In this document: piece by piece, positions 21,535-41,674 of the stretch
Numbering within the stretch: position 1 is the stretch's first letter
How the letters are laid out: every line of letters begins with the position of its first letter
Assembly (NCBI GenBank): GCA_003660925.1
Contig: QMVD01000001.1
Span: forward strand, 1-45,075
Reading direction: 5' to 3'
Source: Nanobdellota archaeon
GTDB lineage: Archaea > Nanobdellota > Nanobdellia > B33-G15
DNA: 45,075 nt
Notes under the pieces: generated by a model
What the model saw: the letters and a program-made list of their open reading frames with translations, nothing else
Told to the model about the DNA's origin: nothing
The model's database searches: none
Position numbers and translations under genes: made by a program

Positions 21535-22335
21535 TTATTTTATCGCTACGATGAATCCCTCTCGGGCGTAATAAACTTTTTTGAATCCTGCTTCTTTCAG
21601 TACTTTGTAATAATCTCTATATGTCCACTTAATGCGTGGGTTCATTATGGGAGCGATTTCAACTCGAAACTTGCCTTTTTCTTCTATTAAAAAGATGTTG
21701 TTCTCAAGGATGCCTTCTGATGTTTTTTCGTTAACCTCAACACGTGTTACCCTTATACCACCTTTCTCGTAAGGAGGTTCTTCAATGCTAAAATGTTTTC
21801 GTTTCTTCCACACTTTTTCTATTTCTCTTTTCAAATCTTTTCTCGTTAATTTGGGCTGGATGCCAGAAAAAATCAATTTCCCGCCTTCATTGAGTACGGC
21901 ATGGACATTTTTAGCCGCTATTTTCATGCCTTCACGTGTAGAGATTTCATCGATGTTGTCAGAGAGGACGCAATCATATTTCCTTTTACACCTCTCACTC
22001 AACTCGTTATAAAGTGAAGTAAAAAACCTAATTTTGAGCCCATTCTCCTCAGCGAGCAAAGGTGCAAACCTAATCGCTACTGGGCTACCATCGGAGCCCT
22101 CGACTTCATAACCAGCTTTAGCTACCAGAACGGTCTTGTAGCCCAATCCGCATGAACAATCCAGTACTGATTTTACTTTTAATTTGCGAAGTAAAGAGAG
22201 AAGTGGTTTTACAGCGATTCGCTCCTCTTTCCAATACTTGGATTCCCAAGAGTCTCTTGTGAACCACATCCACCTCCAAAGAGTGTTCCAAGATTCTAAT
22301 TCGTTGGGGCACACATAGACCCTCACTTTGGCCAT
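21535..22335 (-). CDS. Class I SAM methyltransferase, glycine/sarcosine N-methyltransferase-like
   Basis: VLDCSCGLG, SDGSPVAI, YDCVLS, LNEGGKLIFSG. AT-rich codons. Confidence 0.85.
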   Translation of the reverse strand: MAKVRVYVCPNELESWNTLWRWMWFTRDSWESKYWKEERIAVKPLLSLLRKLKVKSVLDCSCGLGYKTVLVAKAGYEVEGSDGSPVAIRFAPLLAEENGLKIRFFTSLYNELSERCKRKYDCVLSDNIDEISTREGMKIAAKNVHAVLNEGGKLIFSGIQPKLTRKDLKREIEKVWKKRKHFSIEEPPYEKGGIRVTRVEVNEKTSEGILENNIFLIEEKGKFRVEIAPIMNPRIKWTYRDYYKVLKEAGFKKVYYAREGFIVAIK

Positions 22336-22374
22336 AATTTGAGGTTTAGCTCTTTCTTTATTTAATTTTTCTCG

Positions 22375-23313
22375 TTAAGCGCTGTTAAAAATGTTTGATA
22401 GCTTTTCAGGAATTTTGTCAAACATCTCAAGACGTTTCTGTATCCAAGAGTCAGGATGTTTGTTAACTAAGTCCGTTATCTTCCAAATATAGGTGAATTT
22501 TACAAAATCAACAAATGCTCTTTTTTCCTCAAGTGTTAGTGGCCTGTACTTTTGATATTCTCGCAAAAAGACGTTGAGCAATTCACGATTAAAGGCGGTA
22601 CCGGAGCTGAGGCAAAATTCATAAGCCCCCCGAGCAACATCGATCAGAAGAATACCATATAAGGAGTCTCCAAAATCGATCAAAGCCCGTAATTTGTCAT
22701 CTCGGAAAATAAAATTCTGGGGATCTATATCCATGTGAATTGCGCCTTGTGGCAAGTGAGAATATCTCATCCCGTACATGAACTTGGATTTTTTCACGAT
22801 TTCCTGTTTGAGCCTTTTGTTTTTATATCCCGGCAAAACTTCTTTAATGAGAATCCGGTACAGTATTCTTGGTGTAAATCTGCCCCTGGTCGTTCTATAC
22901 TTGCATTTATATCCTCTCACTACCCTGTGAAATTTGCCTAGAAAGGCTCCAACTTGGCCGACAGTAGCAGAATTTAAAGGGTATTTTATTGATCCGTCAA
23001 CGACTTCATAAATCGTGCAGAACCTGCCTTTATACTTAACATAAAGAGAACCGTCTTTGGTTTTGATGATGTTGGGAACTTTTATTCCTTTTTTGCTCAG
23101 ATAGTCTGTCAATATAAGTTCGTACAATAACCAATTTTTTCTCTCCGAATTTTCTTGGATAAAATATTTCACGTGATATTTTCCTTTAGTCGTTTGAATT
23201 TGTATGTTAATGTTTTCTCCTTTCGGCATTTTTGAGTAAGATTTCAAATTACCAAGATCGTAGTGAGAAAGAACTCTCTTCAAGTCTTCCTCACCAAATT
23301 CTTTTTTGATCAT
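22375..23313 (-). CDS. APH / type II homoserine kinase-like phosphotransferase
   Basis: GENIN, LGKFH, Brenner motif IHMDIDPQN, LIDFGD. AT-rich codons. Confidence 0.85.
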   Translation of the reverse strand: MIKKEFGEEDLKRVLSHYDLGNLKSYSKMPKGENINIQIQTTKGKYHVKYFIQENSERKNWLLYELILTDYLSKKGIKVPNIIKTKDGSLYVKYKGRFCTIYEVVDGSIKYPLNSATVGQVGAFLGKFHRVVRGYKCKYRTTRGRFTPRILYRILIKEVLPGYKNKRLKQEIVKKSKFMYGMRYSHLPQGAIHMDIDPQNFIFRDDKLRALIDFGDSLYGILLIDVARGAYEFCLSSGTAFNRELLNVFLREYQKYRPLTLEEKRAFVDFVKFTYIWKITDLVNKHPDSWIQKRLEMFDKIPEKLSNIFNSA

Positions 23314-38491: not shown

Positions 38492-38706
38492 GTCACCATC
38501 TTTTAGTCATAACCTACTAAAAATGTTTCGGTCAATAAAGGAATATGGGAAAAAGATGGGACTTCTCTTCTTGAAATCATTCCCGTCTCCAAAAGGGTAT
38601 TCTTTCTAAGAAACTGTGATATCGGCCGGACGTATCCGAGATTTGGCCGAGATGTAAACTTATTGTTGGTAATATTTTTAAAATTCCTAGTAGGATTACG
38701 TATAGT

Positions 38707-40296
38707 TTGAGTCCAAAAGAAGTTTATCAATTTAGGGGACTAGGAGCAAGCCCAGGGAAGATTATCGGCAAAGCTAAATTAGTATTTGAGCTTAAAGACT
38801 TAGAAAGAGTCGAAAGAGGAGACATAATTGTTGCCCCTATGACAAACCCGGATATGACAGTTGCATTAGGGAAAGCAAGCGCCGTTATTACTGATGCTGG
38901 AGGCTTAAGTAGTCATGCCGCAATAATCGCAAGGGAATTAAAAATTCCAGCAGTAGTGGGAACTGAGATAGCTACTAAAATTCTTCAGGATGGTATGATT
39001 GTCGAGGTTGACGGGATCAAAGGTGAGGTGAAGATACTTTCTAAAGAAGATGTGGAAATCCCAACATACCTAGAAAAAACAAAAGACACATATACAATCT
39101 TCGGAAATCGCTGCCCCATAACTACTATCAAAACCCCGCGAAAAGAACCTTTTTTCAAAAGGGTTTCGGATATAACATGGGAAAATCCTCCAAATAAAAT
39201 AAATGTCATAGCACCACGTCCGGAGATCAGAAACACGCCCTTCACGGGCTCGCTCATAATTCCTGCAATTGAAAGGCTCCCTTTCGCTTTAGGTTTCGAT
39301 GATGTAGGGCCCATGTACGCCTATGTCATGAATCACCTGCTCTACATATCATATGAAAAGATATCAGAAGTGATGGAAAGAAGTAAATCGATGCTTCTCA
39401 ATGAAAGGAGATGGAAATCTTACTTGAAAAATCTGTATGAAAAATATGATCTCTTCACCAAGGTCACGCGAGAGATTAATGAAGTGGAAGAAGTAAAAGA
39501 CTTCGAACATTTGTTAGAGGGCGCTTTCATAGAGTGGTGGAAGGCCCACAATTCGTTTTTCTCTCAAACTTTTTTAATTCAAGCATGGGGGGACGAAATA
39601 ATTTGGCCGTTGATTAAACAAATTTTAGAGAAATACTACACCCGAGAGCAAGCACTCGAACTTTTATCAAAATTATCCAAATTACCGGAGCCCATACCTT
39701 CTGTGGAATTTTATTCCGACTTCCAAAAGTTAGTTTCCATGATACCAGTCAAAGTGTTGGAGAAACTAATTCATGGCAAAGGGGAGGAGAAAAAGAAGGT
39801 CTTCGAAGACCTCAAAAAGAATGTTCTTTTTACGGAATTCATGAAGAAATGGTACTGGGTAAGGGACAGAGATTTCTATTATGGGGATATAAGAGATGTG
39901 GACATATTCTCTCACTTCGTGAAGTTATTAGGTGAATCAAAACGGATTGAAAACGAACCACCTGAACCTCTAGGTAAAATTGCAGAGAAAATTGGAAAAG
40001 AGGATAAAGAGAGATTGGAATACCTGATAGAGGTGGGGAGGATATTGAAAAAAGAACGGGATTACCATCATTTTCTTTGGCTTAAAAACACTTCAGTTAT
40101 TAGGGATCTCTTCCTAAATTACGGTTCCACTTTAAAGGAAAAAGGTATTTCAGAAGAACCGAGGGATATATTCTTTCTTTGGATACCTGAGATTTATGAC
40201 CTTCTGGAAGGAAAGTTGAGACAGGAAGAGATTAGAGAATTGGTAAAAATCAGGAAGAAAAATTTTATGAGGCAAGTGCAATGGAAGAGCAAATAA
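38707..40296 (+). CDS. PEP-utilizer protein: N-terminal phospho-His swivel domain plus RPH-like helical domain, no ATP-grasp
   Basis: GLGASPG, IVAPMTNPD, TDAGGLSSHAAIIARELKIPAVVG (His at 38914). C-terminal ERDYHH...G..L.EKG....DIFFL..EI. TTG start. Confidence 0.8.
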   Translation: MSPKEVYQFRGLGASPGKIIGKAKLVFELKDLERVERGDIIVAPMTNPDMTVALGKASAVITDAGGLSSHAAIIARELKIPAVVGTEIATKILQDGMIVEVDGIKGEVKILSKEDVEIPTYLEKTKDTYTIFGNRCPITTIKTPRKEPFFKRVSDITWENPPNKINVIAPRPEIRNTPFTGSLIIPAIERLPFALGFDDVGPMYAYVMNHLLYISYEKISEVMERSKSMLLNERRWKSYLKNLYEKYDLFTKVTREINEVEEVKDFEHLLEGAFIEWWKAHNSFFSQTFLIQAWGDEIIWPLIKQILEKYYTREQALELLSKLSKLPEPIPSVEFYSDFQKLVSMIPVKVLEKLIHGKGEEKKKVFEDLKKNVLFTEFMKKWYWVRDRDFYYGDIRDVDIFSHFVKLLGESKRIENEPPEPLGKIAEKIGKEDKERLEYLIEVGRILKKERDYHHFLWLKNTSVIRDLFLNYGSTLKEKGISEEPRDIFFLWIPEIYDLLEGKLRQEEIRELVKIRKKNFMRQVQWKSK

Positions 40297-41354
40297 AGAC
40301 GTGCAAAGAAGTCATGGAAGACGCGCATCCACAAGATGTACTAATCCTATCTCACGCCGACCATGACGGACTCACTTCGGTTTCTTTGATAGATCTAATC
40401 TATTCTGACCTCTATGACTCACTTACCAAGAAATTACACCCCTCGAAAACACGAAGTTACTACAAGATCTTAAACGAAGTTTTGAGACTAAAACCAGCAT
40501 ATTTTCTGATCGTGGACGCATTGGTAAAGCCCTACGAAAGACTCATTGAGAAAATTGCAAAACAAGGAACAAAAGTGATTAATCTGGACCATCATGATAT
40601 GCTTTCTGTCAGTCATGAAAATTATTTGGATCTAAATCCACACAAGTGGAAGATGGAGTTCATGAATTCTTCTGGGCTGTGCTGGTTAATTGCAAGAGAA
40701 TTTAACAGGAATTATTTTGAAAAAAGATGTTGGGTAGCTGGAATAGGGGCAATTCAAGATTATTGTATCGAAGATAACAAAGAATTGATGAAAGAATTGG
40801 CAAAAAGACACTATATTAGGGAAACTACTCTTGCTTCAACTCTTGACTCGAAATTACTTGAAATTGCAAAAGCCATCAATTCTGCGAGCAGATTGTATCC
40901 TGTAAATACAGTTTATCAAATAATTTTTCAAGCAGCAGCCAGAAACGACGTGAAGATGCTGGAAACGAATGAAAAACTCGTTAAAGCTTTGGAGAGTTAC
41001 AGGAAAAAACTGGAAGGCTTATATGATCAAATCAAGAAGAAAGAAATCAGTGTTGGGAGTTTAAAAGTTAAGTTTTATGATCTAAAAGGGAACAACATTT
41101 CATTGATTTCAGAAATTTGTGAAAAGGAAAGAGAAAACGCGATCTATGTTGGTTATAGCAATGGGTTATTAGGTTTTCGTAGTCTTTTTTATGAGTATGA
41201 TGTTAGAGAATTGGCAAAATTGTTTAATGGGGGAGGACCCCACCCAAGAGTTGGAGGTGCTCGAACAGGAAAAACATTTGAGGAGGTAATTAATGAAGTA
41301 GTAAATCATCTCAAAGGAAGAAAATCTCAAAGGACACTCAACGAGTTCAGATAG
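40281..41354 (+). CDS. DHH family phosphoesterase
   Basis: HADHDG, LIVD, NLDHH, C-terminal GGGPHPRVGG. Overlaps the upstream gene. Confidence 0.82.
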   Translation: MEEQIKTCKEVMEDAHPQDVLILSHADHDGLTSVSLIDLIYSDLYDSLTKKLHPSKTRSYYKILNEVLRLKPAYFLIVDALVKPYERLIEKIAKQGTKVINLDHHDMLSVSHENYLDLNPHKWKMEFMNSSGLCWLIAREFNRNYFEKRCWVAGIGAIQDYCIEDNKELMKELAKRHYIRETTLASTLDSKLLEIAKAINSASRLYPVNTVYQIIFQAAARNDVKMLETNEKLVKALESYRKKLEGLYDQIKKKEISVGSLKVKFYDLKGNNISLISEICEKERENAIYVGYSNGLLGFRSLFYEYDVRELAKLFNGGGPHPRVGGARTGKTFEEVINEVVNHLKGRKSQRTLNEFR

Positions 41355-41601: not shown

Positions 41602-41674
41602 CGCCCCGGCCGGGATTTGAACCCGGGTCCCAGGCTCGACAGGCCTGGATCCTAGGCCGCTAGACTACCGGGGC
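41602..41674 (-). tRNA. tRNA-Asp(GUC), intronless
   Basis: GCCCCGGTAGTCTAGCGGCCTAGGATCCAGGCCTGTCGAGCCTGGGACCCGGGTTCAAATCCCGGCCGGGGCG, with all four stems pairing. Confidence 0.96.

Follow-up and report, generated by a model that had tools for sequence, protein, structure and literature searches.

What might a phosphohistidine (phospho-His) swivel protein do when it lacks the ATP-grasp domain that would charge it, and when the gene overlapping its own encodes a phosphoesterase? The question is raised by two genes, here called gene A and gene B, on contig QMVD01000001.1 of a Nanobdellota archaeon (GenBank assembly GCA_003660925.1), of which positions 1 to 45,075 were analyzed (hereafter the window). 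Gene A (38707..40296, + strand) is an open reading frame with a TTG start, and encodes a 529-amino-acid (aa) protein with a phospho-His swivel and a substrate domain like that of rifampin phosphotransferase (RPH), without an ATP-grasp domain. Gene B (40281..41354, + strand) encodes a protein of 357 aa that is by its domains a stand-alone DHH-DHHA1 phosphoesterase. Gene A is an ATP-grasp-less derivative of a rare, unnamed and undescribed branch of the phosphoenolpyruvate (PEP) synthase/RPH superfamily, and its pairing with gene B is both conserved and undescribed. The most likely function, to which we assign a probability of roughly 55%, is that of a trans-charged phospho-His transferase that acts on an acceptor, perhaps a nucleotide-like one, and is coupled to a step by the DHH-DHHA1 phosphoesterase.

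Domain order of the gene A protein and its family

The original prediction, made from the DNA alone, described two open reading frames with a 16-nucleotide (nt) overlap, the first of them encoding an N-terminal swivel with an intact SHAAI histidine and an RPH-like helical region that ends in DIFFL; each of these elements was recovered. The swivel is a PEP-utilizers mobile domain (PF00391; E 3.7e-24, 84.6 bits against a cut-off of 23.1) that spans aa 36-106 (38812..39024, +). The catalytic residue, His70 (38914-38916, +), lies inside SHAAI (38911-38925) in the context GGLSSHAAI, so that the protein has the GGxxxHAA catalytic-His feature of PEP synthase and pyruvate phosphate dikinase (PPDK) swivels, and this residue is invariant across the family. 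The closest solved structures for the swivel are those of archaeal PEP synthases (8A8E, P. furiosus-type, E 1e-26), followed by the Listeria RPH (RPH-Lm; E 2e-20), and it is 53–59% identical to archaeal PpsA swivels. One NCBI protein of 552 aa (P0009) has only the swivel in common with gene A, and its alignment shows an apparent second swivel-like segment at the C-terminal end.

The remainder of gene A encodes a mostly helical domain of ~400 aa (39082..40293, +), and Pfam has no family covering aa 115-529. The AlphaFold2 model of the whole protein (pLDDT 83, pTM 0.82) is helical after the swivel, and the C-terminal domain (C-domain) was also modeled alone (pLDDT 72.6). When the latter model was compared against the PDB with Foldseek, the significant matches were five RPH-Lm entries only (E 9e-6 to 5e-4, probability 1.00; query TM-score 0.45–0.55 over 380–474 columns, identity ~13–15%); the full-length model gave swivel-domain matches only, and the RPH match required the C-domain alone. 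A profile built from 17 diverse family members also matched RPH-Lm in the PDB (E 6e-6). Thus, the entire C-domain, beyond its DIFFL tail, is a homolog of the rifampin-binding (substrate) domain of RPH, as judged from both the profile and the modeled fold, and the possibility that the helical region is unrelated to RPH can be set aside. The last ~100 aa match positions 658–756 of the 891-position NCBIfam model NF004878 (PRK06241 group, RPH-like; E 4.5e-12), in which positions 789–890 are the swivel. Because the matched segment directly precedes the swivel in RPH-type proteins, the domain order of gene A is reversed relative to that of RPH.

Two motifs in the C-domain bear on its chemistry. DIFFL (aa 487-491, within RDIFFLWIPEI at aa 486-496; 40165..40179, +) is common to RPH-type dikinases, and ERDYHH (aa 450-455; 40054..40071, +) aligns in HMMER with Y665-R666-E667-Y-P-K670 of RPH-Lm, such that R451 corresponds to Arg666, D452 to Glu667, and H455 to Lys670 (Lys replaced by His). 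In RPH, these three residues have been assigned to the second phosphotransfer by mutagenesis and structure (PMC4844700). Across the 17 diverse family members R451 is invariant and H454 nearly so, and further polar or aromatic positions are fully or nearly conserved (PRPE, WWKxH, KWxWxRxRD, and QxxxDD).

With RPH as the closest characterized homolog of the substrate domain, and with the phosphotransfer residues kept, gene A could be envisaged as an RPH-like phosphotransferase that modifies a xenobiotic or antibiotic, inactivating a toxic small molecule of hosts or competitors, with gene B as an unrelated or accessory hydrolase. The relatives of RPH have been described as a broad group of dikinases that act on small molecules (PMC4844700, PMC12167813), and the patchy, horizontal distribution described below is typical of resistance genes. 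However, at an identity of only ~13–15% to RPH over the fold the substrate pocket is not conserved, and in the absence of an ATP-grasp domain gene A would not be a stand-alone resistance enzyme; moreover, this interpretation leaves the tight, widely kept overlap pairing with a DHH gene unexplained, and a phosphatase would undo the inactivation. We consider it distinctly unlikely.

The wider family shows where the unusual domain order comes from. A word-based search recovered seven close relatives only, all swivel-first and ~520–580 aa in length, and a hidden Markov model (HMM) of the C-domain alone, searched against 1.84 billion cluster representatives, recovered 97 proteins (24 of them below 1e-30). 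These include short forms of ~550–580 aa and long forms of 843–877 aa and ~970–1070 aa; in the latter, Pfam places PPDK_N (ATP-grasp) first, then PEP-utilizers, then the new domain at the C-terminal end. From these long relatives, the complete family architecture is read as ATP-grasp, His swivel, and RPH-like substrate domain. The PEP/pyruvate TIM barrel (PF02896) was not found by Pfam in gene A or in its long-form relatives, and by its predicted domains the family is arranged like PEP synthase and PPDK, except that an RPH-like substrate domain stands where those enzymes have the TIM barrel. The original view of gene A as a rearranged phosphotransferase therefore stands insofar as the protein is a His-first relative of RPH without ATP-grasp, but this is not a private permutation, given that the long relatives share the ATP-grasp, swivel, C-domain order; nor is the His-first order an assembly artefact, since it recurs on many independent contigs.

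Profile scans of genome contigs added little to this family: an alignment of the close family found no relatives, and a 7-sequence alignment found one true relative, a 1052-aa long form of Rubricoccaceae (locus L011), together with 18 other matches, which are ordinary RPH-type proteins similar in the DIFFL segment alone. Search patterns could not be derived from the 17-sequence alignment, given its diversity.

Gene A resembles several characterized enzymes, each in part. With RPH (RPH-Lm; PDB 5FBS/5HV1; NF041857, PRK06241 group) it shares a phospho-His swivel, the fold of the helical substrate domain, the Arg-acid-basic phosphotransfer motif and the DIFFL segment, but RPH has the order ATP-grasp, substrate domain, swivel, whereas that of the gene A family is (ATP-grasp), swivel, substrate domain; in addition, gene A lacks ATP-grasp, has a DHH partner gene, and scores far under the RPH-type NCBIfam cut-offs (76–122 bits against 866–999, including 121.6 against 945 for NF004878 and 76 against 999 for NF041857). 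In HpeHI, CreHI, and the phenylphosphate synthase PpsAB (PMC12167813), the His/substrate-domain protein is likewise not fused to ATP-grasp, and their His subunit joins a substrate domain like that of RPH to a swivel. However, their swivel is C-terminal while that of gene A is N-terminal; their ATP-grasp subunit is encoded adjacently, whereas none is encoded in any gene A short-form locus; and gene A has a DHH phosphoesterase partner, an archaeal host, and no aromatic-catabolism context. PEP synthase (PpsA) and PPDK share the swivel, and the order ATP-grasp, swivel, third domain is the same in the long-form relatives of gene A, but the third domain of the gene A family is RPH-like and helical rather than a TIM barrel, and gene A is without ATP-grasp. 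Given that gene A departs from RPH, HpeHI, and PpsA in at least one defining feature each, it is not a member of any of them. VadK of M. tuberculosis was also considered as an analog, and was ruled out because it keeps its ATP-binding domain. RPH-like dikinases are currently known in two layouts, either fused (ATP-grasp, substrate domain, swivel) or split with an adjacent ATP-grasp subunit; the gene A family represents a third, in which PEP-synthase order is combined with an RPH-like substrate domain.

Absence of ATP-grasp and the source of phosphate

Neither gene A nor the window encodes an ATP-grasp domain, as had been claimed from the sequence. PF01326 (PPDK_N) has no match in gene A, tblastn with five ATP-grasp domains has no match in the 45-kb window, and the gene A frame stays open for just 29 codons upstream of the TTG start, so there is no hidden N-terminal domain. 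No ATP-grasp coding sequence was present in any of the other short-form loci either (L004-L007, L031-L040, L043 with 13 kb, L048 with 17 kb, and L049).

In a maximum-likelihood tree of the swivel and C-domain, long and short forms interleave; for example, the long form of L041 is sister to the short P0006, and the long form of L050 is sister to the short P0126. At least three changes of ATP-grasp state (loss or gain) are needed on this tree, counting only loci with inspectable upstream DNA. Repeated loss would be the simpler reading, since the bacterial branch consists entirely of long forms. The short forms nevertheless evolve under constraint: dN/dS is 0.08–0.14 among unsaturated pairs, and ~0.1 for the orthologs of gene A and of gene B alike, and both genes are under purifying selection. 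Repeated loss of ATP-grasp without loss of selection implies that donors other than a dedicated neighboring subunit can charge swivel proteins in trans.

These values also bear on the idea that gene A is a decaying, functionless remnant of a full-length dikinase. It lacks the ATP-grasp domain of its full-length relatives, and both an internally deleted form of 298 aa (L049) and a split-frame gene (L040) exist. Yet dN/dS is low among the short-form orthologs; the catalytic His and Arg are invariant; the frame is intact and the fold confident; and clades that are 31–65% identical all retain the short architecture, each with its own upstream promoter-side context. The remnant interpretation is thus largely refuted, and was rejected on dN/dS and residue conservation; what probability it retains is very small. 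The gene at L049 (7095-7991) is a natural "mini" gene A in a single frame, in which only the swivel (aa 11-84) and the final ~140 aa, with ERDxHH and the DIFFL region, are retained; the DHH gene still follows it. The gene-A ortholog at L040 (2034-3253), on a metagenome contig, lies in two overlapping frames (288 aa and 126 aa), reflecting a frameshift or a sequencing error.

Only one other protein in the 672-kb assembly has a PEP-utilizers domain, and it is also the only one with PPDK_N: a canonical PEP synthase, encoded on another contig and cut by the contig end. Charging of gene A in trans by this PEP synthase is plausible, in that the gene A swivel is as similar to the PEP synthase swivel (53% identity) as it is to those of the long-form relatives (48–53%). 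HpeH alone moves phosphate between two substrates (PMC12167813), and by analogy the gene A protein might also act as a donor-independent transphosphorylase.

The DHH partner and its pairing with gene A

Gene B encodes DHH motifs I–IV (DxD, D, DHH, D) and the DHHA1 GGGxH motif; motif I reads HADHDG (40353-40370, +), the eponymous DHH lies at 40587-40595 (+), and the Gly-rich DHHA1 motif is GGGPH (41229-41243, +). With all of these catalytic motifs present, the original assignment of the downstream gene to the DHH enzymes is sound, although the Pfam DHH match (E 1.3e-05, 26 bits) falls just below the cut-off of 28.1. Across 20 gene B homologs, H25, D27, H28, D29, D79, D103, H104, H105, D160, G317, and G319 are invariant. 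The nearest solved relatives are M. jannaschii RecJ2 for the DHH domain (E 2e-7) and Thermotoga TmPDE for the DHHA1 part. In its motifs and in its NrnA/TmPDE-like size, gene B resembles the stand-alone DHH-DHHA1 and archaeal RecJ-like proteins (RecJ2 6TVV, TmPDE 5O25, NrnA), but it forms a small subfamily of its own that nearly always follows a gene-A homolog, and scores far below the archaeal RecJ/GAN equivalog cut-offs (45.4 against 360 for NF053576 and 45.4 against 550 for NF040701, over the N-terminal ~150 aa only). This subfamily is tiny, with 21 clusters in 5.8 billion. DHH-DHHA1 enzymes act mostly on nucleotides and short nucleic acids, and the DHH partner thus gives a handle on the substrate of gene A.

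The end of gene A overlaps the beginning of gene B by 16 nt (40281..40296, +; ATGGAAGAGCAAATAA, read directly), by which the two genes are likely to be translationally coupled, and a comparable A/B overlap is found in loci L005-L007, L031-L037, and L043. An AT-rich TATA-like box (TTTTAAAATT; 38676..38690, +), read from the sequence ~20–30 nt upstream of the gene A TTG start, is a putative archaeal promoter of the cassette.

Such coupling suggests a stoichiometric A–B complex, and with two further DHH genes in the genome, gene B is an extra, specialized copy. Together with the swivel being as close to the host PEP synthase as to the long forms, these features could indicate that gene A works with PEP synthase as a phospho-carrier or regulator, in which His~P would report PEP/ATP status and the C-domain would phosphorylate or control gene B, switching a RecJ/NrnA-like nuclease on or off. 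This is very unlikely in our estimation: the homologous domain in RPH-type enzymes binds a small molecule rather than a protein (PMC4844700), long forms with their own ATP-grasp also have a DHH partner, meaning that dependence on PEP synthase is not general, and nothing points to a phospho-acceptor site on gene B.

The pairing extends well beyond the close relatives of the window genes, contrary to the concern that it might not be conserved. Members of the gene B subfamily at ≥37% identity are nearly always directly downstream (3') of a gene-A homolog, and in the window clade the DHH partner immediately follows gene A on many contigs. Elsewhere, the DHH gene directly follows long forms of 854 aa (L041) and 843 aa (L050), overlaps a preceding 577-aa short form (L043), and comes after a 561-aa short form on a 2.35-Mb Bathyarchaeia contig (L048) and after the internally deleted form at L049. 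By these annotations, both long and short forms are paired with a DHH gene, and the pairing extends over several lineages of archaea, Aenigmarchaeota and Bathyarchaeia among them. Our literature searches turned up no description of a DHH partner for a dikinase or swivel protein; the conserved DHH partner is a new association for the dikinase superfamily.

The genomic contexts of the pair are mixed. Some are defence-like or mobile, with DUF4062 (L041), a serine recombinase and an HD protein (L043), or nucleotidyltransferase/winged helix-turn-helix pairs (the window) nearby; others are housekeeping, with ribosomal protein S11 and a GAN-like RecJ (L036), or L16 and NurA (L049). Flanking genes differ in every lineage, and thus genes A and B travel as a unit.

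Acquisition of the cassette and its proposed role

The G+C content at third codon positions (GC3) is 0.40 in gene A and 0.35 in gene B, against 0.62–0.74 in the surrounding host genes, and the C-domain family is present in one of 401 genomes of the phylum, namely this one (281 genera were sampled, including one genome of the same family). The low GC3 and the restricted occurrence together establish that the A–B cassette was horizontally acquired. Here a DPANN genome of 0.67 Mb has clearly gained genes recently, and in such a genome each retained accessory gene is informative. The low-GC islet ends ~250 nt before a tRNA-Asp(GTC) gene (41602..41674, − strand; ARAGORN; Rfam RF00005, 59 bits), which is a neighbor of the cassette and not a functional part of it. 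Between this tRNA gene and the islet's left edge, att-like repeats did not exceed chance, nor did flanking repeats, and no integrase was found near the tRNA-Asp edge.

This history raises the possibility of a defence or conflict module, in which a dikinase-type enzyme and a DHH protein would modify or degrade a nucleotide or nucleic-acid target upon infection, or in which the two together, in the case of the long forms, would burn ATP (ATP to AMP and two Pi) through a cycle of phosphorylation and dephosphorylation. The extremely patchy spread and foreign GC3 are consistent with such a module, as are the movement of the pair as a two-gene unit between unrelated contexts and the defence-like or mobile neighbors, including short Piwi-domain (prokaryotic Argonaute-like) and Hypoth_Ymh-domain genes at L004. 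However, neither gene matches a defence family in PADLOC-DB 2.0 at E ≤ 0.01; no relatives were found on viral contigs, in plasmids, or in the BFVD viral structure library; other neighborhoods are of the housekeeping type (L036, L049); and a short form without ATP-grasp cannot burn ATP alone. We regard a defence role as unlikely on balance. A more specific version, equally doubtful, is that the pair is a mobile conflict module of archaea, adding a phosphate to a nucleotide or nucleic-acid terminus and taking it off again, with the long forms perhaps draining ATP instead in a phosphorylation and hydrolysis cycle, and the repeatedly evolved ATP-grasp-less versions drawing phosphate from the host PEP synthase; if true, this would tie the module to the PEP/ATP state of the cell via PEP synthase.

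The trans-charged transferase with a coupled phosphoesterase step is the function we favor. From the domain identities and their order, the conservation of catalytic residues, the pairing, the purifying selection, and the foreign origin, all of which are directly supported, we infer a donor, an acceptor, and a direction for the gene B step as follows. His70 would be phosphorylated in trans, most plausibly from the ATP-grasp or PEP site of the host PEP synthase, or alternatively from another donor or a phosphorylated metabolite. The swivel would then dock on the C-domain, where R451, D452, and H455 would orient the phosphate so that it can pass to a hydroxyl group on a bound acceptor, either small or nucleotide-like. 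Finally, gene B, as a translationally coupled predicted phosphoesterase of the same pathway, would remove that phosphate or cleave a phosphodiester in the substrate or product.

Several observations weigh against this scheme. A kinase and a phosphatase acting on the same group would constitute a futile cycle, and hence the role of "eraser" that the original prediction gave to gene B may be wrong. No phosphate donor for gene A was identified in the assembly, and as this is just 88.5% complete, a separate ATP-grasp gene could be missing from it. Most family members outside the window clade (e.g., P0122, P0133, P0138, L008, and L009) have a conserved acidic-aromatic C-terminal tail (..EDDYY, ..DNEYY, ..NDVF) that the window clade lacks, such that its mechanism may differ from that of the other members. 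Neither is the pairing universal: gene A has no DHH partner in the L008/L009 clade or in the bacterial branch (L011), and one Nanopusillaceae contig carries the DHH gene alone. Lastly, none of the neighboring genes indicates a substrate.

Several of the neighborhoods contain further genes of note. In the L008/L009 clade (L008:9769-12015 and L009:2943-5280), the genes after gene A encode a type I 3-dehydroquinase-like protein (PF01487, E 1e-53) and an uncharacterized protein of 449–471 aa; these neighbors could point to a substrate of the cyclitol or shikimate type there. Upstream of gene A at L008 (53-7788, − strand), co-oriented genes include ThiF (E1-like), Prok-JAB (a weak match), and an RNase T-like exonuclease, a run that looks like a ubiquitin-like conjugation or defence-type cluster. 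At L011 (5165-8518, − strand), the Rubricoccaceae long form has as neighbors an NTP_transf_5 nucleotidyltransferase and a protein of 518 aa whose swivel is C-terminal, and this locus therefore encodes two different His-swivel proteins; hhalign detected no relation between the family profile and the 518-aa protein. The Piwi-domain and Hypoth_Ymh-domain genes at L004 (1203-3703) lie just upstream (5') of the A–B pair. At L036 (268-8302), three DHH-family genes occur within 8 kb, encoding a GAN-like protein (DHH and DHH_CID, 460 aa), an NrnA-like DHH-DHHA1 protein (357 aa), and a gene-B homolog after gene A. Within the window itself, two genes at 21535-23313 (− strand) have GC3 values of 0.41 and 0.40, as foreign as those of the A–B cassette, and look like a second horizontally acquired islet.

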